A stretch of 64,000 nucleotides of DNA, from assembly GCA_028286685.1 (NCBI GenBank), contig JAQBRA010000002.1, forward strand, positions 1,073-65,072. Reading direction: 5' to 3'. The notes beneath the pieces are model-generated. The model saw only the letters and a program-made list of their open reading frames with translations. It was not told the origin of the DNA and ran no database searches. Made by a program: the position numbers and the translations under genes. Origin of the DNA: Candidatus Adlerbacteria bacterium. GTDB lineage: Bacteria; Patescibacteriota; Minisyncoccia; Phycocordibacterales; SBAW01. Shown one piece after another: positions 6,762 to 30,677 of the stretch; position 1 is the stretch's first letter; the number at the start of each line of letters is the position of its first letter.

Positions 6762-6833
6762 GGCCACGTAGCCAAGTAGAAAGGCGCGGGACTGCAAATC
6801 CTGTATGCGCGGGTGCGATTCCCGCCGTGGCCT
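6762..6833 (+). tRNA. tRNA-Cys(GCA)
   Basis: Cloverleaf with acceptor GGCCACG/CGTGGCC, anticodon loop CTGCAAA, and T-arm GGGTGCGATTCCC. Confidence 0.8.
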
Positions 6834-7008
6834 CAAGGAGAGTATTCGACGCTGGGGCCACGGAGAGAAGCATGGGATGCTTCTCGTCGGGAATCGCAAG
6901 CCGGAGCGGGCCCCATGCCTCTTGGCATGGGAGCGAGGCAGGGCCGTGCGGCACATGATCCAGTGGTATCATGTGAACGCCTGGCCGATCCGCCGTGGCC
7001 TCAAGTTT
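6834..7008 (+). repeat. tRNA-linked structured repeat element, copy 1 (ends with a 16-nt duplicate of the tRNA-Cys 3' end)
   Basis: Conserved core aagccggagc...gcgaggcagggccgtgcggc...gaacgcctgg plus two hairpins that covary against copies 2 and 3. The terminal ccgccgtggcctcaag repeats 6823-6838. Confidence 0.6.
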
Positions 7009-7012
7009 ATTT

Positions 7013-7096
7013 GCCGGGGTGATGGAATGGTAGACATAGGGGACTTAAAATCCCCAGAGCTAATATCTCGTGTGGGTTCGAGTCCCACCCCCGGCA
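7013..7096 (+). tRNA. tRNA-Leu(TAA)
   Basis: Acceptor GCCGGGG/CCCCGGC, anticodon loop CTTAAAA, long variable arm, and T-arm GTGGGTTCGAGTCCCAC. Confidence 0.85.
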
Positions 7097-7101
7097 CCGG
7101 T

Positions 7102-7980
7102 ATGGATTTTTTATACGGAAAGCTAGAGCAAGCACCTGAGGGTTTTTGTCCACCTGAGATGTGGCCTGAGTACGCGATCGTGTCCCAGCCTACCTGGCCC
7201 TGCACAAGCGAAGGTGTAGGCAAGGACCCCAGCGGCGTACGCTGGGGTCTATGGCCCTTTACCTTTGAAGACTACATAAGCGACAAAGAACCAAACCTGC
7301 AGGAGTCGCGCAAAGGCACACTGGCCCGCAATCGCGTTATTACGTGGGAGCGCGTGCGCAAAACCAACATACCCCGGGGATGGATGCAGTTTAGCAGAGC
7401 ACCCTCGCGCATAGATGGCGTTTTATCCCTAGATCAAGATCAGGATTATACCCTTTCATGGAATAAGAATGCCCGCCGCGATTTGCGAATTTTTAAAGAC
7501 AAAGTGGCAAGCGGGCTCTATGCAGTAGTGCCGATTTCAATGGATGCGTTTGCAGGTGCTTACCGACAAAGCCTGATAGCCCAACGTGTTGATCTCCGCC
7601 GCCTCGAGGATCTTGAGCGCAAGTTTGCACATCCAGCCGCGCAAGGACATATAAAATTATGGGGTGTTCGTAACACTCAAACTGATGCCATAGTAGCGGG
7701 CACTGCTATTAATTATTCTCCTACCTATAAAAACTCGACTCATATTGCGCCCTTTATACTTGAGGAAGGGCGCCACCTCTGCGCCGCAACGGGGCTTATT
7801 GACCATTGGTTTGCAGAATCCATAAAACACGGCTGCACTTTTGCAACCACGCTCAACTTTTGGTTTAAGGGCCAGCCCAAAGAGTGGCGCGGGTTTTCTG
7901 AATTCAAATCGCACTTTGGGTTTCAGTTTGTGGCCTATCCACCTCGGCTCTATAAGTTCGTTTTAGGGAAGATTTTTTAA
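7102..7980 (+). CDS. FemAB-like / GNAT-fold (Acetyltransf_6-type) acyltransferase family protein; low-GC, likely acquired
   Basis: C-terminal GFSEFKSHFGFQFVAYP matches the FemAB/BioF2-like G-x-x-FK-x-x-FG motif. GC is visibly lower than its surroundings. The ORF-track start at 6805 would run across two tRNAs, so the ATG at 7102 was used. Confidence 0.4.
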   Translation: MDFLYGKLEQAPEGFCPPEMWPEYAIVSQPTWPCTSEGVGKDPSGVRWGLWPFTFEDYISDKEPNLQESRKGTLARNRVITWERVRKTNIPRGWMQFSRAPSRIDGVLSLDQDQDYTLSWNKNARRDLRIFKDKVASGLYAVVPISMDAFAGAYRQSLIAQRVDLRRLEDLERKFAHPAAQGHIKLWGVRNTQTDAIVAGTAINYSPTYKNSTHIAPFILEEGRHLCAATGLIDHWFAESIKHGCTFATTLNFWFKGQPKEWRGFSEFKSHFGFQFVAYPPRLYKFVLGKIF

Positions 7981-8573: not shown

Positions 8574-9734
8574 ATGACACACATGGACGTTGCTCCAGGT
8601 CCGGATATCGTCAGTCGAGATACGGACCGAGTCGACACTTATCCCGCCTACTACTTCCTCGCACTCATTGTGCTTGCGGCGGCCTGGTTTCTGACAGGTC
8701 TCGTATTTTACGGGATACCCGTCGGATACGGCAGCTTAACGATCTACATGAGCACCGTCATCTGGGCTTTGGGAGCCGCGCACTTTGCGACCAGCTTCAG
8801 GATTGTAGAGCCTGACTACTTCGCTGGCGTCCTGGTGTTCGGAACGCCGACCGTTGTCGTGACTGGCAAACCGCTCTTGGTGCCCATGGGAATCTTTAAA
8901 GTCATAGAGATCTCCCGGGGCATCATCCAAATGGAGCTGCCCAACGAGCCGAATCTCATCTTCCGCAAAGAGGATGTAGAGATTGTTCCTCCTGGCATGT
9001 CACCCCCAATCCGGGTGACCTTCAAGAAGGGAGTGGCAGGCGACGATGGCTTTGATCCAAACGATCCGTTTGATGACAGGTCGACTCAAGAAGTGACTCC
9101 TATCATTCGCTTCAGGATTCAAGACGAAGAAGGGTTCTGGACGTTCTTCGTAAGGCTCGGAGGATTCGACGAAGCGCGCAAGCAAGCCGAAGACATGAGC
9201 ATCGCCGTTCTCCAGCAGTGGCTGACAGCACTCACTCTTCGGCAAGCTTTCGCGGGTATCGGAACAATCAACCGACATTACGACGATTACATCCGAGCGC
9301 AGACTAAAGGATGGGGCATCGAGATCGACAGTGCACACATCAAACTTATTGGCCTGTCGCACTCCTTCAATACAGCCATCCAGGATATCCCGCGCGCCAA
9401 AGCCGAAAAACTTGCTCGAACTTCTCGGGCAGAAGCTAAGCAGATTGAGCTCACGCGCGAAGGACTCGGCGAGGCTAATGCCAGAAAAGCACTTCTTTTT
9501 GCTGAAGCCTCTGGTCTTGAAGAGAAAGCGAAGTCACTTGGCGTAACCGGACACGACATGCTCGGTGCCGATACGGCCCGAGCGATCGGAGAGTCCGGCA
9601 ATATGATTATTGTCGGCGCTCAAGGCCTTACGGAAGCCGTTACCGCCGCGTTTGCGGCGGGAAAAGGCATGCAAGGAAAACCCAAACCCACACCCCCTGC
9701 CACTGAACCAGGCACACCACCCACTGGAGCATAG
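8574..9734 (+). CDS. SPFH/Band-7 (stomatin/flotillin-like) domain membrane protein
   Basis: N-terminal TM helices, then an SPFH-like core (...IRFRIQDEEGFWTFFVRLGGFDEARKQAEDMSIAVLQQWL...), then an Ala/Glu-rich coiled coil and a Pro-rich tail. Confidence 0.6.
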   Translation: MTHMDVAPGPDIVSRDTDRVDTYPAYYFLALIVLAAAWFLTGLVFYGIPVGYGSLTIYMSTVIWALGAAHFATSFRIVEPDYFAGVLVFGTPTVVVTGKPLLVPMGIFKVIEISRGIIQMELPNEPNLIFRKEDVEIVPPGMSPPIRVTFKKGVAGDDGFDPNDPFDDRSTQEVTPIIRFRIQDEEGFWTFFVRLGGFDEARKQAEDMSIAVLQQWLTALTLRQAFAGIGTINRHYDDYIRAQTKGWGIEIDSAHIKLIGLSHSFNTAIQDIPRAKAEKLARTSRAEAKQIELTREGLGEANARKALLFAEASGLEEKAKSLGVTGHDMLGADTARAIGESGNMIIVGAQGLTEAVTAAFAAGKGMQGKPKPTPPATEPGTPPTGA

Positions 9735-9736
9735 AA

Positions 9737-10642
9737 ATGGAACTGACTTACGGAATCGCTATCTTTGTCCTCGTGGTGTTTTCCGTTTATTTTGGAAGAC
9801 ACTGGGAAAAGAAAGGCTCTACACGTATCAGCAGACCATCCCCCGTAACCCCTTCTACCAGAACACCGGAAGATACCGCAAACGAAGACAAAACTCCTCC
9901 TGCGGCTTCTGGCTGGTGGAAAGCGATAGGGGGCGTATCTGGTCGGTTTGTAACCTATTGGTCGACAAACTGGGCGTATGTTCTTCTGCCGCCCGCAGCG
10001 GTAGCACTGTCCCTTGTCCTGTTTGCATACTCCTTCCCTGAATGGTGGTGGTCATACAAACAATGGAATGGACCGACCTGGCAACTTGTGGTTGCCACGC
10101 TCGCACTCGGACTTATCAAGGTCTCTCCTCTCGCGCCCTCTTGGCGCGGGAGACTTACGGCATTAGTGCTCGTATTCGCGGTCGGAGCCTTTGTGTGGAC
10201 ACTTCTTGTCCGGGCTCCGTTCTTCTGCGCTCCTGGCGACACCGCGTGTCGCCAGGAGGAAGCCCGGGTGGCGAACGAGAAGCGTCTGGCCGTCCTGCAA
10301 GATCAGGCACGGCGCGCTAAACAAGAGCGGCGTGATGCAGTGGCACGAACGGACTGCACCCATGGCGTGTTGGCGACCATAGAGCTCAACCAAGAGCCGG
10401 TCACATTCCCCAACCGCTGCGTGTTTATCTTCGATATTACGGCCGGACCTGTCTGGTTCAAGGGCAGGGACGGCACTGTTGTCGGAGGCAGCACCGGAGT
10501 TACTGCAGGAGCTCGAGTGCCATGGCCCAGCGGGTTTCGACTCCTGGGCGCATGGTCGCGAGGCAACGGCAAGCTCGAAGGCGTCTTCTGCCCGGAAGAG
10601 CGGCCGGTATGGCGCAGCGGAACTTGCTCGCATACCGGTTAG
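9737..10642 (+). CDS. multi-pass membrane protein, partner of the SPFH gene (NfeD-like role possible)
   Basis: Start is 3 nt after the SPFH stop. It has four predicted TM segments, then a Cys-containing soluble C-terminal domain. No recognisable family. Confidence 0.4.
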   Translation: MELTYGIAIFVLVVFSVYFGRHWEKKGSTRISRPSPVTPSTRTPEDTANEDKTPPAASGWWKAIGGVSGRFVTYWSTNWAYVLLPPAAVALSLVLFAYSFPEWWWSYKQWNGPTWQLVVATLALGLIKVSPLAPSWRGRLTALVLVFAVGAFVWTLLVRAPFFCAPGDTACRQEEARVANEKRLAVLQDQARRAKQERRDAVARTDCTHGVLATIELNQEPVTFPNRCVFIFDITAGPVWFKGRDGTVVGGSTGVTAGARVPWPSGFRLLGAWSRGNGKLEGVFCPEERPVWRSGTCSHTG

Positions 10643-17695: not shown

Positions 17696-20167
17696 TTACA
17701 AGCAAACGAAGGAGGCAATTGCGTCGCCTTCGCGGAGTTTCATCACGCGGACGCCTTGGGTGCTGCGGGAGAGGGACGGGATTTCTTTAAGCGCGGTGCG
17801 AATGACCTGACCCTTCTTGGAGACGACAACGATCTCGTCCTCGCCTACGCCTTCTTCTTTTGAAATTACTTTAGACGCAATCAGCGAGCCGGTCTTGGGG
17901 GTCGTATTCATGGTCTTGATGCCCGAGCCGCCGCGGTTCTGGTTCTTGTACTCGTCCACCGAGGTGGTCTTGCCGTAGCCGTTCTTGGACAACACCAGAA
18001 CCTCGAGGTTCTTCATCCCCTTCTTGATAACGTCGGCACCCACGATAATGTCGCCGGCCCCCAGCTTCATACCGCGCACGCCGCCGGCACCGCGGCCCAT
18101 GGCGCGGATGTCGCCCTCCTTAAAGCGGATCGATTGGCCCTTGGCGGTCGAGAGGAAGATCTCGTCGCCCTTCTCTACCAGGAGCGCGGCAATAAGCTCG
18201 TCGCCCTTCTGGAGCTTGATAGCAATAAGGCCCGAGCGGCGCACGTCATGGAAGGCGGTGGCGTCTACCTTCTTGGCAACGCCTTCTTTGGTGATCATGT
18301 ACAAAAACTTCTCGCCCTCCTTCTGGTTCTTGCGCATCGGCAGCACGCTCGATACTTTTTCTGAGTCGGTAAGCTGCAGGAAGTTGACCAGGGCCTTGCC
18401 CTTGGTCGAGCGCTTGCCTTCAGGAATTTCGTAGAACTTGAGCTGGAAGGCGCGGCCTGCGTCGGTAAAGAACAAAAGGTCGCTATGGGTCGAGGTGGTC
18501 AGGAAGGTAGTAACGAAGTCCTCCTCTTTAGTATCAAGGTCGATAACGCCAACGCCGCCGCGCTTCTGCTGCTTGTATTCGTCGGGGTTGGTGCGCTTAA
18601 CGTAGCCGCCTGCAGTCAATACCAAAACCTGCTCCTCGTCGGGCACGAGATCCTCGACATTGATAACGCCGGCGGCGCCTTTCATCACCTTGGTGTTGCG
18701 GTCGTCGCTAAAGCGGCGGGTAAGCTCCTCGATCTCATGCTTAATAAGCGCGAGCATCTTCTTGTCGCTGCCCAAGAGCGCGGTCAGCTCGGCAATAAGC
18801 GCCTGGACCTCTGCAAGCTCGTCCATGACCTTCTGGCGCTCGAGGTTAGCAAGGCGCGAAAGACGCATCTCCAAAATGGCAGTGGCCTGCAAGTCGCTGA
18901 ACTTGTACTTCTTAACGATGTTGGCATGCGCCTCCGGCACATCTTTGGAGGCGCGGATGGTCTTGATGAGCTCATCAATTATGTCGAGCGCCTTGGCGAG
19001 GCCGAGCAAGATGTGCTCGCGGTCCTGCGCCTTGGTGAGATCAAACAGCGTGCGGCGGCGCACGACCTCGCGGCGGTGCTTAATAAACTCCTCGAGGATG
19101 CCTTTGAGTGAAATGGTCTGCGGCACGCCGTCGACAAGCACAACCATGTTGAAATGGAACGTGTCCTCAAGCGCGGTGTGCTTGTAGAGGAAGTTGAGGA
19201 CCTTCTGCGGATGCGCGCCCTGTTTGAGGTCGATAACGACGCGGATGTCCTTGGACGATTCGTCGCGCAGGCCGCGCACGCCCTCAAGCTTCTTGTCGCG
19301 GACCAGGTCGGCGATGCGCATGATGAGGTCGGCCTTGTTGACGCGGTACGGAATGGAGGTAATGACGATCTGGAAGTCGCCCTTCTTGCCTTCTACAATT
19401 TCTGCCACGCCGCGCACGACTACGCCGCCCTTGCCGGTGCTGTAGGCATGCAAAAGCGCTTTCTTATCAAATGCCACGGCGCCCGTCGGGAAGTCCGGGC
19501 CGGTAATAAACTCCATGAGGTCCTCGACGGTTGCGTCCGGGTTTTCTATCAAATGCGTCAAAGCGCCGGAGACCTCGCCCAAGTTGTGCGGCGGAATAGA
19601 GGTTGCCATACCGACGGCGATACCGAGCGTGCCGTTAAGCAGAATGTTGGGCATGCCGGCAGGCAGCACCGTCGGCTCCTTGATAGTGCCATCGTAGTTG
19701 GGGCGCCACTCCACAGTGTCTTTATCAAGGTCGTTTAAGAGCGCCTCGGCTACGCGCGACATTTTCGCCTCGGTGTAGCGGTAGGCGGCGGCCGAGTCGC
19801 CGTCGATGGAGCCGAAGTTACCCTGGCCCAAAATGAGCGGGTAGCGCATAGAGAAGTCTTGCGTCATCTTGACCATCGCGTCGTACACCGACTGGTCGCC
19901 GTGCGGGTGGTATTTACCCAGTACGTCTCCCACGATAGTTGCCGACTTGCGGAAGCGCGCGCCCGGGGTAAGCCCCTGGCGATGCATGGTGTAGAGAATG
20001 CGGCGGTGCACCGGCTTGAGACCGTCGCGCACATCGGGCAGGGCGCGGTCGGTAATGACCGACATGGCGTAGTCGATAAAGCTCTCGCGCATTTCAGCGG
20101 AGATGCTGCGGCCGACGATGCCCGTGCCGCCCTGTTCTTTTGTCTTGTTTTCTTCCTTGTCTGCCAT
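17696..20167 (-). CDS. gyrA: DNA gyrase subunit A
   Basis: 823 aa, [23 protein letters not shown] (active-site Tyr region), and the C-terminal beta-pinwheel GyrA-box region. Confidence 0.95.
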
Positions 20168-20168
20168 A

Positions 20169-20420
20169 CTAGAATCCTGAAGTCGGGGCCGGTATTAACT
20201 GGTTGGGCCCATTGTAGCCGCTTTGCGCCGCCGCCGCAGTAAGCGACGTCTGGTTAGTATCGTCTTGCGCCAGCTGCGTCTCGTCGGAGGAAAGGCGGAA
20301 GCCCAGCGTCGTAATCCAGATAGCAAAGACCCCCGCCGTAACGACGCCCGCGATCTGCATCGCATGCTGGCGGCGCTCGTGGGGCTCTTTGGTCTTTATG
20401 TGATCGAGATACTTCTTCAT
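20169..20420 (-). CDS. hypothetical small membrane protein
   Basis: Single TM ([18 protein letters not shown]). Start taken at the internal Met to avoid overlap with the upstream gene. Confidence 0.3.
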
Positions 20421-20427
20421 ATCTATA

Positions 20428-21048
20428 TTATGCGCCCAAAACGACGACTTCGGCCTCTTTGCCCTCAAGGTCCTTGCGCTTGACGGTCAGTTTTTCCTCG
20501 GCCTTTGTGCCCTCGGCACCCGCCTCCTTAAGGAATGATTTGAGCGCGGCCGCATCGTAGTGCATGGGCACGATTACCTTGGGGCCGAGCTGCACGGCCA
20601 GCTTATAGGCCGCCGCATGATCAAGCACTTCGCCGCCGCCGACCGGTATAAACAGTATATCGACTTCATCAACTTCTTGCTTGGCAGCCGCGGGCAGCTC
20701 GGCCGAGCCCATGGCGCCCAAAAAGCACAGGTTCATGCCCTCGAGCGATATAGAGTAGATAGTATTGATAGTCGCCTGCTTGTCGTAGGTCGTAGGCGCA
20801 CCAAAGCCACGCACTGCTACGCCCTTAACCTCATACTCGCCCGCGCCGCTTATAACGAACGGCTGGCGCTCGCCGAAGGAGGCGTTTTCGGTGCCATTGA
20901 AGTCTTCATGCGGCAAAGAGACAAGGGCGATGTCAGCGCCAAACTTAGAGGTGGCAAGCTTGGAGGATTTGCCGGGCGGGTTGATAGCGATAGTCAGATC
21001 GCCAAAGGTAACCTTAAAGCACTCGCCGCCCAGGTAGCTGATAACCAT
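20428..21048 (-). CDS. MBL-fold metallo-hydrolase
   Basis: Beta-lactamase-fold-like ...DIALVSLPHEDFNG...VIVPMHYD. Confidence 0.5.
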   Translation of the reverse strand: MVISYLGGECFKVTFGDLTIAINPPGKSSKLATSKFGADIALVSLPHEDFNGTENASFGERQPFVISGAGEYEVKGVAVRGFGAPTTYDKQATINTIYSISLEGMNLCFLGAMGSAELPAAAKQEVDEVDILFIPVGGGEVLDHAAAYKLAVQLGPKVIVPMHYDAAALKSFLKEAGAEGTKAEEKLTVKRKDLEGKEAEVVVLGA

Positions 21049-21102
21049 GCCTCCATTTTAACATATTTATGAACGCTTTTCCATAAATCGGCTTCTATCT
21101 AC

Positions 21103-21131
21103 TTGACATCTTCATATCGGAAGTTTATATT
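21103..21131 (+). promoter_or_regulatory. sigma70-type promoter
   Basis: TTGACA, a 17-nt spacer, then TATATT, about 100 nt upstream of the Gln/Gly-rich ORF. Confidence 0.55.
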
Positions 21132-21233
21132 GCCTATACATGTTCGCCTGACGCGGACGCCCTCAAAAGGCGCCCTTTTTGTTCCCCAGGGGGCAGAGTC
21201 AGGATGAGGACGTGCAGCACACAGGAGACGACA

Positions 21234-21401
21234 ATGGGTCAAAACAACAAGCCGGGTCAGGGTCAGAAGGATCAGGACCAGCAGGGCGGCCAAAGCGGCC
21301 AGAAGCCCGGCCAGCAGAGCCAGCAGCCCGGCCAAGGCGGCCAGCAGCAGGGCGGCGCCCACAAGCCCGGCACCCAGCCCGGCAAGGGCTCGCAGCGCTA
21401 A
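21234..21401 (+). CDS. small Gln/Gly-rich low-complexity protein (KGG/QGG stress-protein-like)
   Basis: AGGAGAcgacaATG. The product is MGQNNKPGQGQKDQDQQGGQSGQKPGQQSQQPGQGGQQQGGAHKPGTQPGKGSQR. Confidence 0.4.
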   Translation: MGQNNKPGQGQKDQDQQGGQSGQKPGQQSQQPGQGGQQQGGAHKPGTQPGKGSQR

Positions 21402-21668
21402 CGCGCGATCGGCCCACATCCTCGGCGGCGCCGGCGCGCCGTCGAGGACAACCCGGAGGAGTTCCATGAGCATCAAACCAATGCATGGCTTGGGAATTCC
21501 TCAAGCCTTGCAGCAACACGGTGCGGGACCTAAATCCCCGCCTGAACCAAGCGTACTTGGAGTAGTCGGATTCGGGCAACCGATTCCGCCGCTTCAAGGC
21601 GTCACGCCGTCTCTAAAGATCCAAGTCTCTGGGAGGAGAACGCAGAAGCGCCTTTAAGGCGCTCGCAG

Positions 21669-21718
21669 AAGCCCGGTTCGCGCAGCACCATTCAGGTGTT
21701 GAGCGAACCGGCTTTTTT
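21669..21718 (+). terminator. rho-independent terminator
   Basis: aagcccggttcgc...gcgaaccggc followed by ttttttatt. Confidence 0.7.
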
Positions 21719-21849
21719 ATTGCCCTAATTTGCAAAAAGGCCCCTTTCGGGCTATAGTCTGAGCCAATAGAGGGAGTCTCTATTATTAGAAACAGCGCGT
21801 AGGAGTAAAGCCAGATCTTGGCCCCCTACCGTACAAATCAATAAATATT

Positions 21850-22944
21850 ATGGAATCTAACCTTACCGAGGAGAACTTGCCCGCATCCGTGATGGCCATG
21901 TTTGCCGAGCAGGCACACATGCCGCCCAAGGCTGGCGATATTATCGAGGGCACCGTGCTCTCTTTGGACCGCGCCCGCCTCTACGTCGACCTGCCGCCTT
22001 TCGGCACCGGCGTTATTTACGGCCGCGAGTACATGAACGCGCGCGAGGTCATCAAGCGCACCAACGTCGGCGACAAGATCAGCGCCAAAGTCATTTCCAC
22101 CAACACCAAGGACGGCTACATCGAGCTTTCCCTTAAGGAGGCGCGCCAGGCCGCTGCCTGGGCCGAGGCCGAGGATATGGTCAAGAACAAGACCATGCTC
22201 GAGCTTACCGTTAAGGAGGCCAACAAGGGCGGACTCATCATGGAGTGGCAGGGTATTGCCGGATTCCTCCCCGCATCCCAGCTCAAGGCAGAACACTACC
22301 CGCGCGTCAGCGACGGCGACAAGGACCGCATTCTTGATGAGCTGCGCAAGCTCGTGGGCACCAAGCTCCCGGTCTCGATAATCGGCGCACAGCCGAAGGA
22401 GGGCAAGCTCATCTTCAGCGAGAAGGGCGCAGACGATAAGGAGAAGAAGGAGCTCATCGCCAACTACGCCGTGGGCGACGCCGTTAACGGCGAGGTTACC
22501 GGCATGGTGGACTTCGGCGTCTTCGTGAAGCTCGAGGAGGGCCTCGAGGGCCTGGTCCATATTTCCGAGATCGACTGGGGCCTGGTAGACGATCCGCGCC
22601 ACTTCTTCAAGGTCGGCGACAAGGTCCGCGTGAAGATCATCGATATCAAGGACGGCAAAGTGTCCCTCTCAGTGAAGGCGCTCAAGGAGAACCCTTGGGA
22701 GGCTGCCAAGGGCCGCTACAACAAGGGCGACAAGGTTGAGGGCGTGGTCATCAAGTTCAACAAGCACGGCGCACTCGCCTCTATCGAGGAAGGCATTGCC
22801 GGCCTGGTGCACGTCTCCGAGTTCGGCACCGAGGAGAAGCTCCGCGGTAGCTTGGAGCTCGGCAAGCGCTACCCCTTCACCATTTCCCTCTTCGAGCCGA
22901 AGGATATGCGCATGGCATTGAATTTCGCAGGGGATAAGAAGTAA
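21850..22944 (+). CDS. rpsA: 30S ribosomal protein S1 (short, four S1 domains)
   Basis: Repeated S1 motifs (GDIIEGTVLSL, GDAVNGEVTGMVDFGVFVKL, GDKVEGVVIKF...). 364 aa. Confidence 0.85.
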   Translation: MESNLTEENLPASVMAMFAEQAHMPPKAGDIIEGTVLSLDRARLYVDLPPFGTGVIYGREYMNAREVIKRTNVGDKISAKVISTNTKDGYIELSLKEARQAAAWAEAEDMVKNKTMLELTVKEANKGGLIMEWQGIAGFLPASQLKAEHYPRVSDGDKDRILDELRKLVGTKLPVSIIGAQPKEGKLIFSEKGADDKEKKELIANYAVGDAVNGEVTGMVDFGVFVKLEEGLEGLVHISEIDWGLVDDPRHFFKVGDKVRVKIIDIKDGKVSLSVKALKENPWEAAKGRYNKGDKVEGVVIKFNKHGALASIEEGIAGLVHVSEFGTEEKLRGSLELGKRYPFTISLFEPKDMRMALNFAGDKK

Positions 22945-22970
22945 ATCCTGCCGATATCCGCGCAAACAAG

Positions 22971-23002
22971 AAACCGCCTCTCAATTAAGAGAGGCGGTTT
23001 TG
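22971..23002 (+). terminator. bidirectional rho-independent terminator
   Basis: aaaccgcctctc-aattaa-gagaggcggttt. Confidence 0.7.
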
Positions 23003-23353
23003 CATCAGATTCTTAAGCAGGGCATTGAACTGCTCCCTTGAAATGAACTTGCCCAAAAATAAGTGCGCCCCGCGCTCTTTTGCCTCCTGCTGCACGGCAG
23101 GTATGCCATGTCGCGATATGACAACGATTGCGGGTGTGCCGCAGCGCTTGCGGATAGTGTCGATGAGCACGAAGCCCTCCTCTGCCTGGCTGCTTAGGCC
23201 CAAGAGCAGCACCAAGTCGAACTCCTCGGCTACCTCGACAAGACCCGAAGCACTAACAGTCGAGACAGAGATACATCCGGTCGTAACCAGCTTGCTTTCC
23301 CAGTCCACAGCCTCGATAGAGGTTGCCGTGTGGTTTACGACGAGCGCTCGCAT
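22985..23353 (-). CDS. stand-alone receiver-like (CheY-fold) domain protein lacking the phospho-acceptor acidic pocket
   Basis: REC-like layout with the conserved Ser (VVIS) and Lys (LGKF). The DD pair reads NH and the Asp57-equivalent reads L (DLVLLLGLS). Confidence 0.45.
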   Translation of the reverse strand: MRALVVNHTATSIEAVDWESKLVTTGCISVSTVSASGLVEVAEEFDLVLLLGLSSQAEEGFVLIDTIRKRCGTPAIVVISRHGIPAVQQEAKERGAHLFLGKFISREQFNALLKNLMQNRLS

Positions 23354-23414
23354 GGGACGCCTCCTTTGTACTTTGCCCCACTATACGGCATGAGCACCCC
23401 TTGCGCAAAAATTA

Positions 23415-23945
23415 CTACCGCGCATTTATTGCGGTCATTGCGGCTTGGACGCCGTCTTCCAAAACTATTTCCAGCGCCTCCTGCACTATCTTTTTAACTT
23501 TTTTGAGCTTCTCCGCATCGAGAGGCTTGAATTTGCCCAAGACAAAGTCGGTAATCTTCTCGGGCGCGGGCCGCTTGAGCAATCCCTTTGGGGTGGCGCC
23601 CGATATGCCGATGCGGATGCGCACGTAGTCTTTGGTCTTAAGGGCCTTTTCTATCGACTTAACCCCGTTGTGGCCGCCGGCGCTCGAGCCGAAGGAGACT
23701 TTGACGCGGCCCAAGGGCAGATCGAGCTCGTCATGGAGCACGATAAGCTTTTCTGCAGCTTTTTTGCTCGCAATCAGCTTCTTTATGGGGCCGCCCGAGT
23801 TGTTCATATACACGTTAAGCTCGGCGACCTTCGCTTTTTTGGGCAGCTTGTCCTTAAGCGCAGCCAGAAGGTCCTTGCCGACGTTGTGCCGGGTGCCAAT
23901 GTATTCCTTATCAGGGTTCCCGAGCCCCACTACTATCCAAGACAT
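23415..23945 (-). CDS. pth: peptidyl-tRNA hydrolase
   Basis: MSWIVVGLGNPDKEYIGTRHNVG... Confidence 0.85.
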   Translation of the reverse strand: MSWIVVGLGNPDKEYIGTRHNVGKDLLAALKDKLPKKAKVAELNVYMNNSGGPIKKLIASKKAAEKLIVLHDELDLPLGRVKVSFGSSAGGHNGVKSIEKALKTKDYVRIRIGISGATPKGLLKRPAPEKITDFVLGKFKPLDAEKLKKVKKIVQEALEIVLEDGVQAAMTAINAR

Positions 23946-24105
23946 GCAGGCACTATACCACGCAGGCAAAAAACAATAGAAAAATAGTCTGGCCCGAGAG
24001 GGCTCAGAGCCCGATACGGGAGACCCGAGGACTTTTTTCTATTGTTTTTCTGCCGGAGATGTTAAAAAAGCTTGCACTGTTTGCAAAGAGGTATAAACTA
24101 ATGCC

Positions 24106-24663
24106 ATGCCACAGGAGAACAGTGATTCTTTTTTCACCGAACTCCTCAAATTCGTAGTAGTCGCGGCCGTCATCGTGCTCCCGGTGCGCCTTTTTGTCGC
24201 GCAACCGTTCATTGTCTCCGGCGAGAGCATGGATCCGACGTTTAAGAACGGGCAATACCTCATTGTCGACGAGCTTACCTACCGCCTGGAGGACCCCAAG
24301 CGCGGCGACGTGGTTATTTTCCGCTACCCGCGCAACCCTTCCGAGTTCTTTATCAAGCGCATTATCGGACTCCCGGGCGAAACCGTTACGATCCAGGACG
24401 GCACCGTATCGGTAATGGGCGCGGACGGCAGCGCGGTCGCACTCAACGAGCCGTACGTAAAAAACATCGGCAACGGCCGCGACTCATCGTATCCGCTCGG
24501 CGCAGACGAATACTTTGTTATGGGCGACAATCGTCCCGAAAGCTCCGACTCCCGCATTTGGGGCGTACTTCCCCGCGAAAATATGATAGGACGCGCCCTG
24601 GTACGGCTTTTGCCCGTCGGGGACGCAGGCGTCTTCCCCGGCTCGGCTACGTACTCTCAGTAA
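24106..24663 (+). CDS. lepB: signal peptidase I
   Basis: GESMDPTF (Ser box), KRIIGLPGE (Lys box), and GDNRPESSDSR. Confidence 0.85.
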   Translation: MPQENSDSFFTELLKFVVVAAVIVLPVRLFVAQPFIVSGESMDPTFKNGQYLIVDELTYRLEDPKRGDVVIFRYPRNPSEFFIKRIIGLPGETVTIQDGTVSVMGADGSAVALNEPYVKNIGNGRDSSYPLGADEYFVMGDNRPESSDSRIWGVLPRENMIGRALVRLLPVGDAGVFPGSATYSQ

Positions 24664-24664
24664 T

Positions 24665-25807
24665 ATGAGCGCCCCCCAGAAATCCTCCCCGGCCAGCTTC
24701 CTTAAATTGTCCCAGGACGTTGCCTCCTTTTACGGCTTCCGGCCGCTGCGCGAGATAGAAAAGAGCCTTGCCCCCGGCATCTACAAGCGCGGGGCGCACA
24801 ACTTTTCCTCCGCCTCGACCGCGCTGGCGCACAGCTCCGGCGGCGTGCTCCCGGAGCCGGTCATGGCCTACTATGCCAGCGCCTCCCCCTTGCATGTGCC
24901 CGGGGGTTGGCCCGCGCGCGAGGTGGGCGAGTTCGGCTTGCAGGTGGCGGGCGCCAAAGAGAGCGTCGGCGAAGTGTTCCTGCTCAAGACGGTCGCCACT
25001 ATTTTAAGCGAGTGGGGCGGCACCATGACCCGGGTGCGCATCAATGCGCTCGGCGACCGGGACTCCCGGCAACGCTTTGCGCGCGAACTTTCAAGCTACC
25101 TGCGCCGCCAGTCGCACAACCTGTCGCCCGAGTGCCGCGACAAGGCGCCTGAAGACCCTATGGCAGTGTTTGCCTGCGCCGACGAGGCATGCCGCGCGGC
25201 GCTCGAGTCCGGTCCACGCGCGATGAACTTCTTATCGGAGAAGAGCCGCGCCCATTTCCGCGAGGTCTTGGAGCACTTGGAGCACTTGGGGCTCCCCTAC
25301 GAGCTTGATGACATGCTGATGGGCGACGAGCGCGAGCCGCGCGTGGCGTTTGCTATCGACCTCAATGAAGACGCCACGGTCCTGGGCTCTATCGGCGGAC
25401 GCTTTGATGACCATGTCCGCCGGCTCACCGGCCACAAGGAGGCTACGGCAGTCCACGCCAGCCTGTTTTTCCGCAAGAAAGGCCTTACCGCTTCAAACTT
25501 CCAGCTCGAGAGCCCCACAGGGCGGCCCCGCATCTACTTTGTCCAGCTGGGCATGCGCGCCAAGCTGCGTTCGCTCGAGGTAAGCGACATATTGCGCGTA
25601 GCCCGCATCCCGGTCCTGCAATCCTTCGACTCGTCCCGCCTTTCCCCGCAGCTCTTGGCCGCAACTGCGGCAGGAGTCTCCCACCTTATTATTATGGGCC
25701 AGCGCGAGGCTCTGGACGGCACGGTTATCGTCCGCGCGGCCGACAATAGTGCCCAGACGACGCTCGGCCTCTCCCAGCTCCCCCGCTATTTAAAGGCCCT
25801 GCACTAG
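24665..25807 (+). CDS. histidyl-tRNA synthetase-like class II paralog (HisZ-like; catalytic motif 2 degenerate)
   Basis: The C-terminal two-thirds align to HisRS (GGRFDD matches GGRYD; anticodon-binding-like HLIIMGQREALDGTVIVR). The N-terminal region lacks the motif-2 arginines. Confidence 0.45.
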   Translation: MSAPQKSSPASFLKLSQDVASFYGFRPLREIEKSLAPGIYKRGAHNFSSASTALAHSSGGVLPEPVMAYYASASPLHVPGGWPAREVGEFGLQVAGAKESVGEVFLLKTVATILSEWGGTMTRVRINALGDRDSRQRFARELSSYLRRQSHNLSPECRDKAPEDPMAVFACADEACRAALESGPRAMNFLSEKSRAHFREVLEHLEHLGLPYELDDMLMGDEREPRVAFAIDLNEDATVLGSIGGRFDDHVRRLTGHKEATAVHASLFFRKKGLTASNFQLESPTGRPRIYFVQLGMRAKLRSLEVSDILRVARIPVLQSFDSSRLSPQLLAATAAGVSHLIIMGQREALDGTVIVRAADNSAQTTLGLSQLPRYLKALH

Positions 25808-25859
25808 GGCCCAGGGGCAGTTGCAGCCCGTCCTTACCCGTGTTATATTTTCCCCACAC

Positions 25860-26117
25860 ATGGCAACCAACGCAGAGGTAAAAAAGAACGACAACGAGAA
25901 CGCGATAAACCTTATCCGCCGCTTTAGTAAGCGCGTCCAGGGAACGGGCCTTATCCAGGCTACCCGCAAGCGCCGCTACTTTGCCCGCGCAAAGTCCAAG
26001 CTGGTTACCCGCAAGGGCGCCCTTAAGCGCATGGCCCGCCGCGAGGAGGTAACCGAGCTCATCAAGCTCGGCAAGATGGAGGCCCGCGTCCCGGGCCAGC
26101 GCTTCCGCCGCAAGTAA
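25860..26117 (+). CDS. rpsU: 30S ribosomal protein S21 (probable)
   Basis: Small basic protein NAINLIRRFSKRVQGTGLIQATRKRRYFARAKSKLVTRKGALKRMARRE, placed ahead of ybeY. Confidence 0.5.
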   Translation: MATNAEVKKNDNENAINLIRRFSKRVQGTGLIQATRKRRYFARAKSKLVTRKGALKRMARREEVTELIKLGKMEARVPGQRFRRK

Positions 26118-26125
26118 ATCTCCGC

Positions 26126-26464
26126 GTGGTACGCATCCCCGCAGTATTTAAGAAGATCCAGGCCGAGATACTCGGCCCCAGCTACGACCTTTCGGTCGTT
26201 TTTTTGGTTGAGAAGGAGATGCGAAAAGCGATGAAGTACCGGTACGAGAAAATAGCCGGAAAGAAGACGTCCAACGTGCTGTCGTTCCCGCTTTCCAAAA
26301 CGTCCGGCGAAATCCTCATCTGCCCCGATGCCGCAAAGCCCTACACCCTTGCCTACCTTTTTATCCACGGATGCCTGCACCTTAAAGGGTCCAAGCATAG
26401 TGATACAATGGAGCGTGAAGAGAACCGGATTTTAAAAAAATTCGGCCTTCGCGCGCATGAATAA
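26126..26464 (+). CDS. ybeY: rRNA maturation RNase YbeY
   Basis: H-x-x-x-H-x-x-x-x-x-H triad in IHGCLHLKGSKHSD. Confidence 0.7.
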   Translation: MVRIPAVFKKIQAEILGPSYDLSVVFLVEKEMRKAMKYRYEKIAGKKTSNVLSFPLSKTSGEILICPDAAKPYTLAYLFIHGCLHLKGSKHSDTMEREENRILKKFGLRAHE

Positions 26465-27635
26465 TATTGTCACCGGCATAGACATCGGCACTTACCACGT
26501 CAAAGTGGTAATTGCTGAGCGCGCGGACGACCCCCGAGTACCGCCCCGCATTCTGGGCACCGGCTACGCCGAGTCCCGCGGCCTGCGCCAGGGCTACATC
26601 GTCTCCATACCCGAAGTCTCTCGCTCGGTCGCCGCAGCGGTGGCCCAGGCAAGCAAGGCCGCGCGGGTAAAAGTTAAGCGCGCCTATCTGGCGGTTGGCG
26701 GCGTGGGGCTCGACGAGGCCTTCTCGCGCGGAGAGACGGTTGTTGAGCGCGGCGACAGCGAGATTACTGACCGCGACCTGCCGCGCGCCATAAAGGCCAG
26801 CGAAGCGGCGCTTCCGCCATCCGCGACCCTTAACCGCAAGATACTGCACACCATACCGCTCAAGCTCTCCGTCGACGGCACGCGCGTCATGGGCCGTACG
26901 CCCGCCGGCATGAAGGGCGTGCGCCTTTCGGTCGAGACCCTTTTTATCACCTGCCTGGAGCGCCACGTGCATGACCTGGTTGCCGCCGTAGAGGACGCAG
27001 GGCTTGAGGTTGAAGATGTCGTAGCGGCTCCCCTGGCTGCATCGTTTATCGCGCTTACCAAGATGCAGAAGCGCGTGGGCTGCGTCCTCGCCAACATCGG
27101 CGCCGAAACCCTTTCCATTATCGTATTTGAGGACAATGCGCCCACCTCGCTTAAAGTATTTCCCGTAGGCGCATCCGACATCACCAACGACCTGGCGCTC
27201 GGTCTGCGCATCAGCCCCGAAGAGGCGGAAGGATTGAAGTCCGGCGCCGTGCTCGGATCGACTTATCCTAAGAAAAAAGTCGACGACCTCATTGCCCGGC
27301 GTGTCGGGGACATGTTCCGGCTCGTCGAGGCGCACCTGAAAAAGATCGGCAAAGACGAGCTCTTGCCCGCGGGCATCATACTCACCGGAGGCGGCTCGGC
27401 CGTGCAGTCGGTCGCAGACCTCGCCAAAGCAGTGCTGCGGCTCCCTTCGCGCACGGCGGCGCTTGCGGAAGGCACTGCGGCAAAGATGCAGCTGCGCGAC
27501 TCATCGTGGGCAGTAGCCTACGGCCTTACCGTCTGGGGCTTCAGCGAGGGCGGCGAACTGGAGATCCACGAGCCGAGCACCGTTTCTGAAACCCTCAGGT
27601 CGCTGTGGCGCTGGTTTAAGAAATTCTTGCCCTAG
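26457..27635 (+). CDS. ftsA: cell division protein FtsA
   Basis: Actin-like ATPase MNNIVTGIDIGTYHVKVV...GGGSAV, immediately upstream of ftsZ. Confidence 0.85.
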   Translation: MNNIVTGIDIGTYHVKVVIAERADDPRVPPRILGTGYAESRGLRQGYIVSIPEVSRSVAAAVAQASKAARVKVKRAYLAVGGVGLDEAFSRGETVVERGDSEITDRDLPRAIKASEAALPPSATLNRKILHTIPLKLSVDGTRVMGRTPAGMKGVRLSVETLFITCLERHVHDLVAAVEDAGLEVEDVVAAPLAASFIALTKMQKRVGCVLANIGAETLSIIVFEDNAPTSLKVFPVGASDITNDLALGLRISPEEAEGLKSGAVLGSTYPKKKVDDLIARRVGDMFRLVEAHLKKIGKDELLPAGIILTGGGSAVQSVADLAKAVLRLPSRTAALAEGTAAKMQLRDSSWAVAYGLTVWGFSEGGELEIHEPSTVSETLRSLWRWFKKFLP

Positions 27636-27762
27636 GCAAGCGCCGCCATAGGGCGGCTTTTTCGATACAAAAGCCAGGTTTGTCAAAATTGCCAAAGGTT
27701 TTAGGAACAAGTAGAGTTGTAGGGCTACACGGCACGCACACCTAAACAACCAACCAATCCTT

Positions 27763-28986
27763 ATGGCACAAGTACATCCTGAAATCGAGGCATTCGCGCG
27801 CATTCGCGTCATTGGCGTGGGCGGTTCGGGCAAGAATGCCGTCAACCACATGGTCGAGGAGAAGGTGCGTGGTGTCGACTTCATCACGATAAACACCGAC
27901 GCGCAGGACCTCCACCACTCCCTCGCCAAGAAGAAAATCCATATCGGCAAGAACCTCACGCGCGGCCTCGGCGCCGGCATGAACCCGGAGCTCGGCAAGC
28001 GCGCTTCCGAGGAAACCAAGGAAGAGATACAGCAGGCCATCAAGGGCTCTGACATGGTCTTTATCGCGGGCGGCATGGGCGGCGGCACCGGCACGGGTGC
28101 AGCGCCCGTCGTTGCGCGCACCGCAAAGGAAATGGGCGCGCTTACCGTCGCGGTCGTTACCAAGCCGTTTGCCTTCGAGGGCCAGGCCCGCATGCGCTTG
28201 GCCGAGGCCGGGCTTGACGACCTGCGCAAGGAAGTAGACGCGCTCATCATCATCCCCAACGACCGCCTCCTCGCTACCGTCGCCAAGGACACTACGCTCA
28301 AGCAGGCCTTCGCCCAGTGCGACGACGTCTTGAAGCAGGCTGTGGAGGGCATCTCCGACCTCATCACCAATCCGGGCATCATCAACGTCGACTTCGCCGA
28401 CGTCCGCGCGGTCATGGAAAACTCCGGCTCGGCCCTTATGGGCATCGGTATCGCCTCGGGCGAAAACCGCTCCGCCATCGCCGCCAAGGCCGCCGTCTCC
28501 TCGCCGCTCCTCGAGCTCTCCATCAACGGCGCCAAGGGCGTCCTGTTCGCCATCGCGGGTGGCGATGACCTGGGCATGCTCGAGGTCCACGAGGCCGCTA
28601 AAATAATCACCGAGTCCGTCGACCCGAACGCCAAGATCATCTTCGGCGCAGTCAAGGACGACAAGCTCAAGAAGGGCGAGGTTCGCGTGACCGTTATTGC
28701 GACCGGCTTCCCCGCCCCGGGTATGGCCGCTCCCCGCGGCACGCCTTTGTTTACGGCATTCGGCCGCGAGACCACCAAAGAAAAGGAGAAGGAGGAGGAT
28801 GTGCCGCCCTTGGGCCAGGCAGGACGCATCTTTAATGCGCCCCAGGCCCCCGCTCCCCGCGAGGAAAAGGAAGAACCTAAAGTAGCGGCACCTTCCTCTC
28901 AGGAGCCCATCAAGATCAAAGTAGACGAGGATGACGACGAGTGGGGCGCGGTACCGAGCTTCCTGCGCCGCCCCAAGATTAAGTAG
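27763..28986 (+). CDS. ftsZ: cell division protein FtsZ
   Basis: GVGGSGKNAV, the tubulin signature GGGTGTG, a T7-loop region, and the C-terminal peptide. Confidence 0.95.
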   Translation: MAQVHPEIEAFARIRVIGVGGSGKNAVNHMVEEKVRGVDFITINTDAQDLHHSLAKKKIHIGKNLTRGLGAGMNPELGKRASEETKEEIQQAIKGSDMVFIAGGMGGGTGTGAAPVVARTAKEMGALTVAVVTKPFAFEGQARMRLAEAGLDDLRKEVDALIIIPNDRLLATVAKDTTLKQAFAQCDDVLKQAVEGISDLITNPGIINVDFADVRAVMENSGSALMGIGIASGENRSAIAAKAAVSSPLLELSINGAKGVLFAIAGGDDLGMLEVHEAAKIITESVDPNAKIIFGAVKDDKLKKGEVRVTVIATGFPAPGMAAPRGTPLFTAFGRETTKEKEKEEDVPPLGQAGRIFNAPQAPAPREEKEEPKVAAPSSQEPIKIKVDEDDDEWGAVPSFLRRPKIK

Positions 28987-29016
28987 TTTACAAAAGGCGC
29001 ATAGAGTTGTATCTTA

Positions 29017-29042
29017 GCGGCGGACCCAATCCGCCGCTTTTG
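29017..29042 (+). terminator. rho-independent terminator after ftsZ
   Basis: agcggcgg-acccaat-ccgccgct followed by tttt. Confidence 0.65.
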
Positions 29043-29068
29043 GCGCACAAACGCACATAAAGGATGCC

Positions 29069-29662
29069 ATGTCTGAACAAGAGGCAGAACTGATCCGGAA
29101 TTCTCTCAGAAAAAAGCCAGGCACCTTTACCGGCAGAGAGATCGAGGGAATTTGCATCCATCGGGCCGCTAGTTCCGACCAGATCTGGCGGCAGATAGCT
29201 GAGCCGAGCCCCAAACTCTACTTGCACCAGCTAAAAGGCCATGCCCGAGCAATGATTCCCCAGAGTATCGAATACCTCAGGTCAGACGAGCCGGTAGCCG
29301 CTGTCGATAGCATAATCATATTTATGGTAAAGGCATGCCAGCGAACCGGACTGATTCTGGGGGACTTTATTCCCCCTAAGGAACTTGCCGGCGTCAGACG
29401 GGCGGCACTACTGCGAGGAGGACGGCTGCCGCTCGATAACCCAAGCCACCCGCTGATAAGGAGCGGCAACGGCAAGGAGATGTTCCGAGCACACGCGGTC
29501 ATCGCCGGAATAAGCCCTCAGGACCTCGGCATCAACAAAAATGAAGCCGAGCGCTGCCTTCGGGCATACTTCTACAAAGGCAGGCCGCGCATGAAAGAGC
29601 ATTGGAAGGCCGCTCAAAAACAGGCTGAGTTCGTCAATAACCTCTTCCCTGCCACCGCTTAG
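29069..29662 (+). CDS. hypothetical protein
   Basis: 197-aa ORF with lower GC and no recognisable motif. Confidence 0.3.
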   Translation: MSEQEAELIRNSLRKKPGTFTGREIEGICIHRAASSDQIWRQIAEPSPKLYLHQLKGHARAMIPQSIEYLRSDEPVAAVDSIIIFMVKACQRTGLILGDFIPPKELAGVRRAALLRGGRLPLDNPSHPLIRSGNGKEMFRAHAVIAGISPQDLGINKNEAERCLRAYFYKGRPRMKEHWKAAQKQAEFVNNLFPATA

Positions 29663-29692
29663 CGCGCCAGCAGGCGCTCAGTTTCTCAATAC

Positions 29693-29722
29693 GCCACCGC
29701 CAAAAGCGGTGGCTTCTTCTTT
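29693..29722 (+). terminator. rho-independent terminator
   Basis: gccaccgc-caaaa-gcggtggc followed by ttcttcttt. Confidence 0.6.
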
Positions 29723-29750
29723 GGGCCCTTACGCGGTAAAATAGATTTCT

Positions 29751-30677
29751 ATGTACGACCTTGCGATTATCGGCGGCGGCCCTGCGGGGGTTGCCGCCGG
29801 CGTGTATGCGGCCCGCAAACGACTTAAGACAGTTTTTATTGCAGAGACCTTCGGCGGGCAGTCGACCGACTCCCTCGATATCCAGAACTGGATAGGCATC
29901 CCGCATATCCCCGGCCCCGCGCTTGCTAAAGCCCTGGAGGCCCACCTGCGCGAGTATGCGAGCGATATCGTCGACCTTAAGGCTGGCGAGCGCGCCGCAA
30001 CTGTAGAGAAGAGTGCGACAGGATTTGCCATAACGACTCAGAAGGGCTCATACGAGGCCAAGACGGTCCTTATCGCCACCGGCGGCTCGCGACGCAAGCT
30101 CGGCATTCCGGGAGCCGAACAATACGAGAACAAGGGCATTGTCTACTGCGCCTCCTGCGACGGCCCGCTGTTTGCCGGACAAGACACGGTGGTTATCGGC
30201 GCGGGCAATGCCGGGTTTGAGACCGCAGCGCAGCTCTTGGCCTATGCAAAATCGGTTACGCTCCTTAACCGCAGCAGCGCATTTGACAAGGCCGACGCCA
30301 AGACCGTCGAAGCCGTGCGCAATCACCCGAACATGACCATACTTGCCGACACGGAGCCCGTAGAGGTTAAGGGCACGATGTTCGTAAATGCGCTTACGGT
30401 TAAAAACACCAAGACCGGAGAGACTAAAGATCTCCCTGCCGGAGGCATCTTTGTTGAAATCGGTGCCCTGCCCGCCACTGGCCTGGTCAAAGATCTCGTG
30501 GAATTCGACCCTTTCAATCACATAAAGGTCGACCCGCGCACGCAGCGCGCCTCAGTTGCGGGCGTATGGGCTGCGGGCGACTGCACGGACGGCTTGTACC
30601 ACCAAAACAATATTGCCGCGGGAGACGCGGTCAAAGCGCTCGAGGATATCTACTTGTATATAAAGTCGGGCAGCTAG
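29751..30677 (+). CDS. trxB: thioredoxin-disulfide reductase
   Basis: GGGPAG FAD site, redox CASCDG, and GAGNAG NADPH site. Confidence 0.9.
   Translation: MYDLAIIGGGPAGVAAGVYAARKRLKTVFIAETFGGQSTDSLDIQNWIGIPHIPGPALAKALEAHLREYASDIVDLKAGERAATVEKSATGFAITTQKGSYEAKTVLIATGGSRRKLGIPGAEQYENKGIVYCASCDGPLFAGQDTVVIGAGNAGFETAAQLLAYAKSVTLLNRSSAFDKADAKTVEAVRNHPNMTILADTEPVEVKGTMFVNALTVKNTKTGETKDLPAGGIFVEIGALPATGLVKDLVEFDPFNHIKVDPRTQRASVAGVWAAGDCTDGLYHQNNIAAGDAVKALEDIYLYIKSGS

Follow-up and report, generated by a model that had tools for sequence, protein, structure and literature searches.

Does a gene that occupies the place of histidyl-tRNA synthetase (HisRS) in the genome, and that resembles it over most of its length, still encode the enzyme? 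The question is raised by a stretch of 64,000 nucleotides from a Candidatus Adlerbacteria bacterium (assembly GCA_028286685.1, contig JAQBRA010000002.1, positions 1,073 to 65,072), hereafter called the window. It contains an intact open reading frame (ORF) at 24665-25807 on the forward (+) strand, which encodes 380 amino acid residues followed by a stop codon. A first-pass annotation had seen in this gene either a HisZ-like regulatory paralog or a HisRS that had drifted to a non-catalytic role.

On the basis of the hisS equivalog model TIGR00442, a profile of Parcubacteria HisRS, an AlphaFold2 model, and dN/dS values, we describe the gene as a degenerate ortholog of hisS, or pseudo-HisRS. It is a member of a large radiation of such forms that is undescribed in the literature searched; in full text, we found nothing on degenerate HisRS in the candidate phyla radiation (CPR, or Patescibacteria). 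We consider it rather likely that the protein is a catalytically dead, in situ descendant of the hisS product of an Adlerbacteria/Kaiserbacteria-type Parcubacterium, and that it has been kept as a tRNA(His)-binding protein. Its new role is probably related to tRNA.

Loss of the catalytic residues and selection on the gene

The homology to HisRS spans approximately residues 56-378. In a phmmer search of the sequences of solved structures, the top matches were bacterial HisRS, with E-values of 1e-21 for S. aureus (1qe0) and 1e-18 for Thermus thermophilus (Tth; 1adj/4rdx). The only domain detected by the Pfam scan was HGTP_anticodon (PF03129, residues 302-378, 27.3 bits). These searches and TIGR00442 confirmed the earlier view that the homology includes the insertion domain and the anticodon-binding domain. 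The score on TIGR00442 was only 91.7 bits against a cut-off of 286.75, and residues 85-367 aligned to profile positions 118-404 only. Relatives of the gene scored 87-99 bits, and canonical hisS genes from the same genomic slot in other Parcubacteria (P0328 and P0164) scored 366-391 bits. On the profile made from canonical Parcubacteria HisRS, the window gene scored 217 bits and the canonical slot genes 560-884. The full-length identity to canonical HisRS (TIGR00442; Parcubacteria P0164, P0328, and P0357) was about 31%. As a control, the valyl-tRNA synthetase (ValRS) of the window was canonical, with 895 bits against an equivalog cut-off of 704.

For residue mapping, E. coli HisS was aligned with the query and its relatives, and positions are given in E. 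coli numbering or, where indicated, in Tth numbering. Family counts refer to 71 relatives with 53-78% identity. A second alignment compared 56 relatives with 60 canonical Parcubacteria HisRS; here, retention is the share of columns at least 90% conserved in the canonical enzymes that have the same majority residue in the degenerate family.

The N-terminal helix and the remnant of motif 1 (residues 1-60, 24665-24844, +) retain the YGFRP sequence and have lost the motif 1 strand, together with the RPEGTA (TXE) loop, by deletion. The deletion removes about 22 conserved columns, which comprise the end of motif 1 and the histidine-binding loop with E83 and T85. Retention over the N-terminus, motif 1, and the TXE loop was 12%, with 22 of 59 columns deleted. 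The remnant of motif 2, LHVPGGWPAREVGEF, occupies residues 76-90 (24890-24934, +). R113 of the E. coli enzyme is replaced just upstream by P75, and Pro stands here in 70 of the 71 relatives. E115 corresponds to H77, R116 to a hydrophobic residue, and R121 to a position that varies among the relatives. Q127, one of the histidine-binding residues, is replaced by E89, an invariant Glu in the family. R123 (Tth R122) has a counterpart in R85, which is Arg or Lys in 64 of the 71 relatives. The earlier statement that none of the motif 2 arginines is present thus holds for R113, R116, and R121 and fails for R123. Retention in the motif 2 region was 38%.

The second remnant of the catalytic core (residues 216-285, 25310-25519, +) contains a HisA remnant (GDEREPR), the sequence GGRFDD, and a motif 3 remnant (ASLFFRKKG). 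In HisA, R259 is deleted, Y263 is replaced by Arg, and Y264 by Glu. GGRFDD (residues 244-249, 25394-25411) had been taken for the motif 3 region; it aligns instead to G285-D289 of the E. coli enzyme, which is the HisRS-specific HisB element, and GGR(F/Y)D is invariant in the family. The true motif 3 is degenerate (25457-25483): GFAMGLER of E. coli corresponds to ASLFFRKK in the window and to ASxFFRKK in the family. The glycines G304 and G308 are lost, and an Arg or Lys persists near the position of R311. Retention from HisA to motif 3 was 21%.

Conservation was higher in the two remaining domains. The insertion domain (residues 129-215, 25049-25309, +) had a retention of 49%, and it contains a block that is invariant in the degenerate family, PRAMNFLSEKSRxHF...LEHLExLGLPYE. 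Within the family, 27 of its columns are at least 90% conserved. The canonical clamps on the acceptor stem, Tth R204 and K209, are lost. The anticodon-binding domain had a retention of 53%. The insertion domain of canonical Parcubacteria HisRS (P0276-P0394) has a conserved cysteine pattern, CxxC...C(K)xxxC...CxxC, which E. coli HisS lacks and which is possibly a zinc site. In the degenerate family (residues 156-194 of the window protein), the last CxxC has become SxxS (S191 and S194), and only one Cys is left of the first pair.

The protein is predicted to be inactive because the residues that handle ATP (the motif 2 Arg and motif 3), histidine (the TXE loop and the HisA tyrosines), and the transition state (R259) are lost. 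Judging from these replacements, it most likely neither forms histidyl-adenylate nor charges tRNA. The first-pass annotation had named beforehand an alignment with motifs 1-3 intact as the outcome that would speak against degeneracy; in our alignments these motifs are not intact, and the losses are wider than was first seen.

Such losses, together with the long branches of these proteins in the tree described below, might suggest a functionless remnant, a pseudogene in the making. The ORF is, in contrast, intact in more than 80 species, and 61 columns are invariant among the 71 relatives. The dN/dS values of close pairs were 0.014-0.19, the same range as that of lepB and slightly above those of ftsA and ftsZ. 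Pooled over 12 pairs, they were 0.121 for the N-terminus, 0.109 for both the first core remnant and the insertion domain, 0.095 for the second core remnant, and 0.077 for the anticodon-binding domain. As the value is about 0.1 in every domain, the residues that replaced the active site are themselves constrained. The gene is therefore under strong purifying selection and is not decaying. The AlphaFold2 model is confident (pLDDT 92.2, pTM 0.91), and the first ranks in Foldseek went to full-length bacterial HisRS, among them the tRNA complex 4rdx, with the HisRS-like domains of GCN2 lower. We give decay practically no chance, and we rejected it on the selection analysis (dN/dS 0.08-0.12) and the undisrupted reading frame. 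Of the two early proposals, a HisRS that drifted to a non-catalytic role is the one supported, in view of the strong purifying selection and the absence of the residues known to act on ATP, histidine, and the transition state.

The hisS slot and the spread of degenerate forms

The gene, here designated X, lies in a syntenic block in the order S1(+), pth(-), lepB(+), X(+), rpsU(+), ybeY(+), ftsA(+), ftsZ(+), and trxB(+) (21850-30677). We observed the same gene order in all 88 loci fetched, whether X was canonical or degenerate. The full nine-gene order was present in 55 loci; the others were cut by contig ends, and there were four minor variants. Canonical hisS occupies the identical slot in other Parcubacteria (P0328 on a 583-kb contig, P0357 from Azambacteria, and P0253; loci L005, L006, and L009), and degenerate relatives with 57%, 55%, 41%, and about 35% identity occupy it as well. 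Because canonical hisS fills exactly the same slot in sister lineages, the window gene is a positional ortholog, that is, an in situ descendant of hisS, and not an inserted paralog. The position between lepB and rpsU had been described as unusual and the gene as a paralog; it is the standard hisS slot of Parcubacteria, and both descriptions should be withdrawn. As the slot was inherited from the ancestral hisS, the neighborhood gives no hint about the new function.

Two observations concern the records of these loci. On a 5.9-kb Logan contig (L009), the canonical hisS at 924-2397 is split in two frames (tblastn segments 924-1151 and 1150-2397); thus, P0253 is an N-terminally truncated call caused by a frameshift or an assembly error. 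Four loci with the identical synteny (L011-L014), as well as many others, have records titled 'uncultured Candidatus Saccharibacteria', probably by automatic mislabeling of Parcubacteria.

The upstream gene, lepB (24106-24663, +), encodes signal peptidase I (Pfam Peptidase_S26, E-value 4e-46), and a single base separates its TAA stop codon from the ATG start of the HisRS-like gene (...cagTAAtATGagc). No terminator-like site was found on the + strand between 24188 and 26184; the first such site is at 26184, within ybeY, and the strongest is at 27642, after ftsA. No known RNA family, including leader RNAs and the T-box, matched positions 20000-30000 in Rfam at an E-value of 0.1 or below. The pseudo-HisRS gene would be co-transcribed and probably translationally coupled with lepB, and it would be expressed with rpsU, ybeY, and ftsA.

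HisZ is the classic catalytically inactive paralog of HisRS. It has no anticodon-binding domain, occurs together with hisG, and has kept a histidine site. A role of the window protein as a HisZ-type regulatory subunit of ATP phosphoribosyltransferase might be suggested by the name of a distant member of the radiation (P0143), which NCBI automatically called 'ATP phosphoribosyltransferase regulatory subunit'; P0143 scored only 58 bits against a HisZ cut-off of 271.65. The window protein gave no match to the HisZ models (TIGR00443 and NF0089xx) even at an E-value of 10 or below, nor did P0096, P0101, and P0121, and no HisZ entry was among the top 50 Foldseek hits. In addition, the anticodon-binding domain is full and is the most conserved domain of the family, and the gene occupies the place of hisS as its positional ortholog. 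The absence of hisG near the gene, noticed in the first-pass annotation, was confirmed: hisG, D, C, B, H, and A are present neither in the window nor in the 88 related loci (1.47 Mb). The HisZ-like alternative is therefore very improbable, and we rejected it on these four grounds, namely the anticodon-binding domain, the models, the slot, and the lack of his genes in the loci searched.

We scanned 185,579 species genomes of GTDB with the motifs FLSEKSRxHF and R[LIV]N[AT][LM]GD[KR]DS and obtained only 89 matches. From these, 80 loci were kept, mostly from metagenome-assembled genomes (MAGs) labeled Adlerbacteria, Kaiserbacteria, Paceibacterota, or Parcubacteria. An exhaustive phmmer search over 1.84 billion cluster representatives gave 277 clusters at an E-value of 1e-30 or below. 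When the best 150 of the 277 were aligned to the E. coli enzyme, 148 lacked the catalytic signature; the canonical ones were P0164 and P0253 only, and a cluster-mate of P0164 from a Minisyncoccota MAG is annotated as histidine--tRNA ligase by NCBI. On the canonical Parcubacteria HisRS profile, the slot genes fell into three tiers, with 560-884 bits for the canonical enzymes, 325-356 for a longer 'EEK' flavor, and 161-244 for the flavor of the query. Across the wider radiation, the former active-site positions vary from cluster to cluster.

In a distance tree of the proteins, all degenerate forms fell into a single group with long branches, whose sister group was the canonical Parcubacteria enzymes. 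This topology fits one ancient loss of catalysis, with long-branch attraction possible. The tree of FtsA and FtsZ has just three groups; thus, rooting cannot decide the number of losses.

The public names of the degenerate proteins are inconsistent. JGI and one NCBI MAG use 'histidyl-tRNA synthetase', and other NCBI names, besides that of P0143, are 'hypothetical protein' and 'His/Gly/Thr/Pro-type tRNA ligase C-terminal domain-containing protein'. As a consequence of the JGI name and the HisZ name given by NCBI, metabolic reconstructions and marker-gene completeness estimates of Patescibacteria may count an enzyme that is absent.

Anticodon recognition and the source of HisRS activity

The anticodon-binding domain of HGTP type (PF03129) occupies residues 286-380 (25520-25804, +). 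In the complex of Tth HisRS with tRNA(His), the anticodon is read by E386-E388, K397, and Q404, and G-1 and the acceptor end are held by R115, R120, and R122 of motif 2, the RGGR loop of the partner subunit, and R197, R204, and K209 of the insertion domain (Tian 2015, PMC4357726). In the phmmer alignment to Tth HisRS, E388, K397, and Q404 correspond to E348 (25706-25708, +), R357 (25733-25735, +), and Q364 (25754-25756, +) of the window protein, and each is invariant in 71 of 71 relatives. D387 is replaced by an invariant Arg. In the family, 35 positions are at least 90% Lys or Arg, and the median pI is 9.1. The blocks that are invariant in this family and its own are largely basic (PRAMNFLSEKSRxHF in the insertion domain and FFRKKG in the motif 3 remnant). 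Because the family keeps the decoding side chains that the HisRS-like domain of GCN2 lacks, the retained readers argue for a specificity for the GUG anticodon loop, that is, for tRNA(His).

According to our preferred reading, the pseudo-HisRS would bind tRNA(His) specifically and non-catalytically through the anticodon loop. The remodeled core and the insertion domain would act on the rest of the tRNA or on a partner protein, and not in aminoacylation. As candidate roles, the protein may sense tRNA(His), sequester it, act as its chaperone, or hand it over.

Several points weigh against this reading. Binding of tRNA(His), which we hold most likely, is deduced solely from residue conservation. 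Most of the contacts to the acceptor end are lost (Tth R115, R120, R204, K209, and the RGGR loop); as the canonical contacts to the acceptor stem and G-1 are gone, binding of the acceptor end would need new residues. The equivalents of R123 and of the motif 3 Arg are mostly kept, so that a residual or altered nucleotide-binding function is conceivable. A further point is that no other gene for HisRS was found where we searched. With the query, E. coli HisS, and two canonical Parcubacteria HisRS, tblastn detected no second hisS in the 64-kb window, and none was detected within 10 kb on either side of the slot in 80 species, the scope being the slot neighborhoods. In searches with P0164 and P0253, none of about 240 canonical Parcubacteria HisRS among the matches listed was encoded on a contig where the degenerate gene is known to occur, and none of them was named Adlerbacteria or Kaiserbacteria. 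These searches covered the slot neighborhoods and the best matches listed, a part of each genome, and do not imply absence.

The loss of the acceptor-end contacts, together with the new invariant motif PRAMNFLSEKSRxHF of the insertion domain, also bears on the possibility that the ligand is not tRNA(His). It could be an anticodon mimic in an mRNA, another RNA, or a protein, for example the real HisRS in a heterodimer, and the protein could then be a regulator or a scaffold. However, the residues by which G34, U35, and G36 are read in the solved complex do not vary among the 71 relatives, and continued recognition of a GUG loop is the simplest explanation for this. Furthermore, apart from the ancestral neighbors, no candidate partner gene recurs consistently next to the pseudo-HisRS gene. 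We regard a different ligand as unlikely, with a modest but real share of the probability. No tRNA-His gene was found in the window or in any fetched locus.

Histidine makes up 2.0% of the 6363 residues in 15 proteins of the window. This usage is normal; thus, HisRS activity is needed in the cell. The most economical assumption is that a functional HisRS is encoded elsewhere in the genome. We consider it very likely that catalysis was taken over by such a hisS and that the old copy was kept for a second function. This scenario is the most economical because CPR bacteria are known to acquire foreign synthetases: they have acquired archaeal TyrRS and TrpRS, the only two shown in that paper (Mukai 2017).

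Conversely, the window protein could still be the only histidyl-tRNA synthetase of the cell, with a rebuilt active site, either alone or with a partner that supplies adenylate formation, and the genomes would then contain no canonical HisRS. This idea fits the ancestral slot, the normal use of histidine, the intact anticodon readers, the Arg or Lys residues kept at R123 and R311, and the negative searches described above. It also fits the core, where the constraint equals that in the rest of the protein (dN/dS 0.095-0.109) and new invariant polar residues are present. On the other hand, the class II motif 2 Arg, which binds the alpha-phosphate of ATP, is an invariant Pro, and both the histidine-binding TXE loop and the catalytic R259, a residue specific to HisRS, are deleted. 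In the wider radiation, the positions of the former active site differ between clusters, unlike a conserved alternative active site, and the searches for a second hisS covered a small part of each genome. We therefore think it quite unlikely that the window protein is the sole HisRS.

About equally doubtful is a wider hypothesis, in which a whole clade of Parcubacteria (the Adlerbacteria and Kaiserbacteria types, and perhaps the wider radiation) would have no conventional HisRS and would make His-tRNA(His) by a non-canonical route with the remodeled protein, through a new active site or a partner. In a milder version, the protein would be the bacterial equivalent of the GCN2 sensor of uncharged tRNA, with specificity for tRNA(His). 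If true, a clade without conventional HisRS would be remarkable.

Other features of the window and comparison with known systems

The gene downstream of the pseudo-HisRS gene encodes a protein similar to ribosomal protein S21. The mechanically called ORF (25821-26117, +) starts at TTG and encodes 98 residues; an in-frame ATG at 25860 gives a protein of about 85 residues (25860-26117, +), which matches the 82-85 residues of the gene at this place in relatives. The Pfam S21 match is below the cut-off (20.5 against 27 bits), suggesting a divergent S21. Between ftsZ and trxB, a 197-residue ORF (29069-29662, +) has no Pfam or NCBIfam match; as trxB directly follows ftsZ in the relatives examined, it looks like a lineage-specific insertion. 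Between S1 and pth, a receiver-like protein of 122 residues (22985-23353, -) matches Pfam Response_reg below the cut-off (22.5 against 30.2 bits) and is perhaps a pseudo-receiver; in relatives, this spot is occupied by Response_reg or Trans_reg_C genes.

The canonical ValRS mentioned above (47470-49626, +) is short, with only 718 residues: on the valS model, which has 860 positions, its match runs from position 2 to 696, and the coiled-coil region at the C-terminus is missing. Three large ORFs, at 812-2242 (+, 476 residues), 6805-7980 (+, 391 residues), and 44972-46180 (-, 402 residues), have no Pfam or NCBIfam match. The second of these is perhaps not a true gene, since it shares sequence with the tRNA-Cys and tRNA-Leu genes (6762-7098).

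Mobile elements were observed around the same block in related genomes. In an Adlerbacteria MAG contig (L003), an RVT_1 reverse transcriptase lies beside a bAvd gene just downstream of trxB (9157-10546), which is the signature of a diversity-generating retroelement. A DDE transposase lies between S1 and pth in the Adlerbacteria MAG MFD09222 (L002, 7343-7783; L003, 1039-1715). This MAG carries the slot region twice, at the end of a 518-kb contig (L035) and on a 12.4-kb contig (L078), owing to either assembly redundancy or a real repeat.

The closest known system is canonical HisS itself. It occupies the same slot, has the same three-part architecture (class II core, helical insertion domain, and HGTP anticodon-binding domain), shares the HisB sequence GGR(Y/F)D and the anticodon readers E, K/R, and Q, and provides the best structural matches. 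It keeps the elements that the window family lacks, namely the motif 1 strand, the RPEGTA loop, R113, R116, and R121 of motif 2, R259, Y263, and Y264 of HisA, the glycine signature of motif 3, the NPLRxLDxK clamp of the insertion domain, and the cysteine clusters. HisZ differs in another direction: it keeps the histidine site, whereas the histidine-binding loop is deleted in the window protein.

The HisRS-like domain of GCN2 is a eukaryotic pseudo-HisRS that senses uncharged tRNA and lacks the elements for adenylate formation and aminoacylation (PMC11363354). Like the window protein, of which it is a structural neighbor, it is derived from HisRS and keeps the folds of the catalytic and anticodon-binding domains without the adenylate elements; it has been repurposed for RNA-linked regulation. 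The GCN2 domain is embedded in a multidomain eIF2-alpha kinase, whereas the window protein is a stand-alone bacterial protein of 380 residues encoded in the hisS locus. The anticodon-binding domain of GCN2 lacks the anticodon-decoding side chains and binds many tRNAs, with no specificity for tRNA(His) (PMC11363354), whereas the window family keeps these side chains in all 71 relatives. The catalytic-like domain of the PheRS beta subunit and the accessory subunit of DNA polymerase gamma come from other parent synthetases and have other partners.

In the present case, an essential and nearly universal gene has a syntenic ortholog that appears to have lost catalysis throughout a whole bacterial clade, yet this ortholog remains under strong selection with its tRNA(His) readers intact. 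This raises the question of where HisRS activity comes from, either a foreign gene replacement or something stranger, and the question of what a stand-alone, anticodon-specific HisRS that does not charge tRNA would do in a minimal symbiotic cell. The same combination of features sets the protein apart from the known synthetase-derived pseudoenzymes, such as HisZ and the HisRS-like domain of GCN2.

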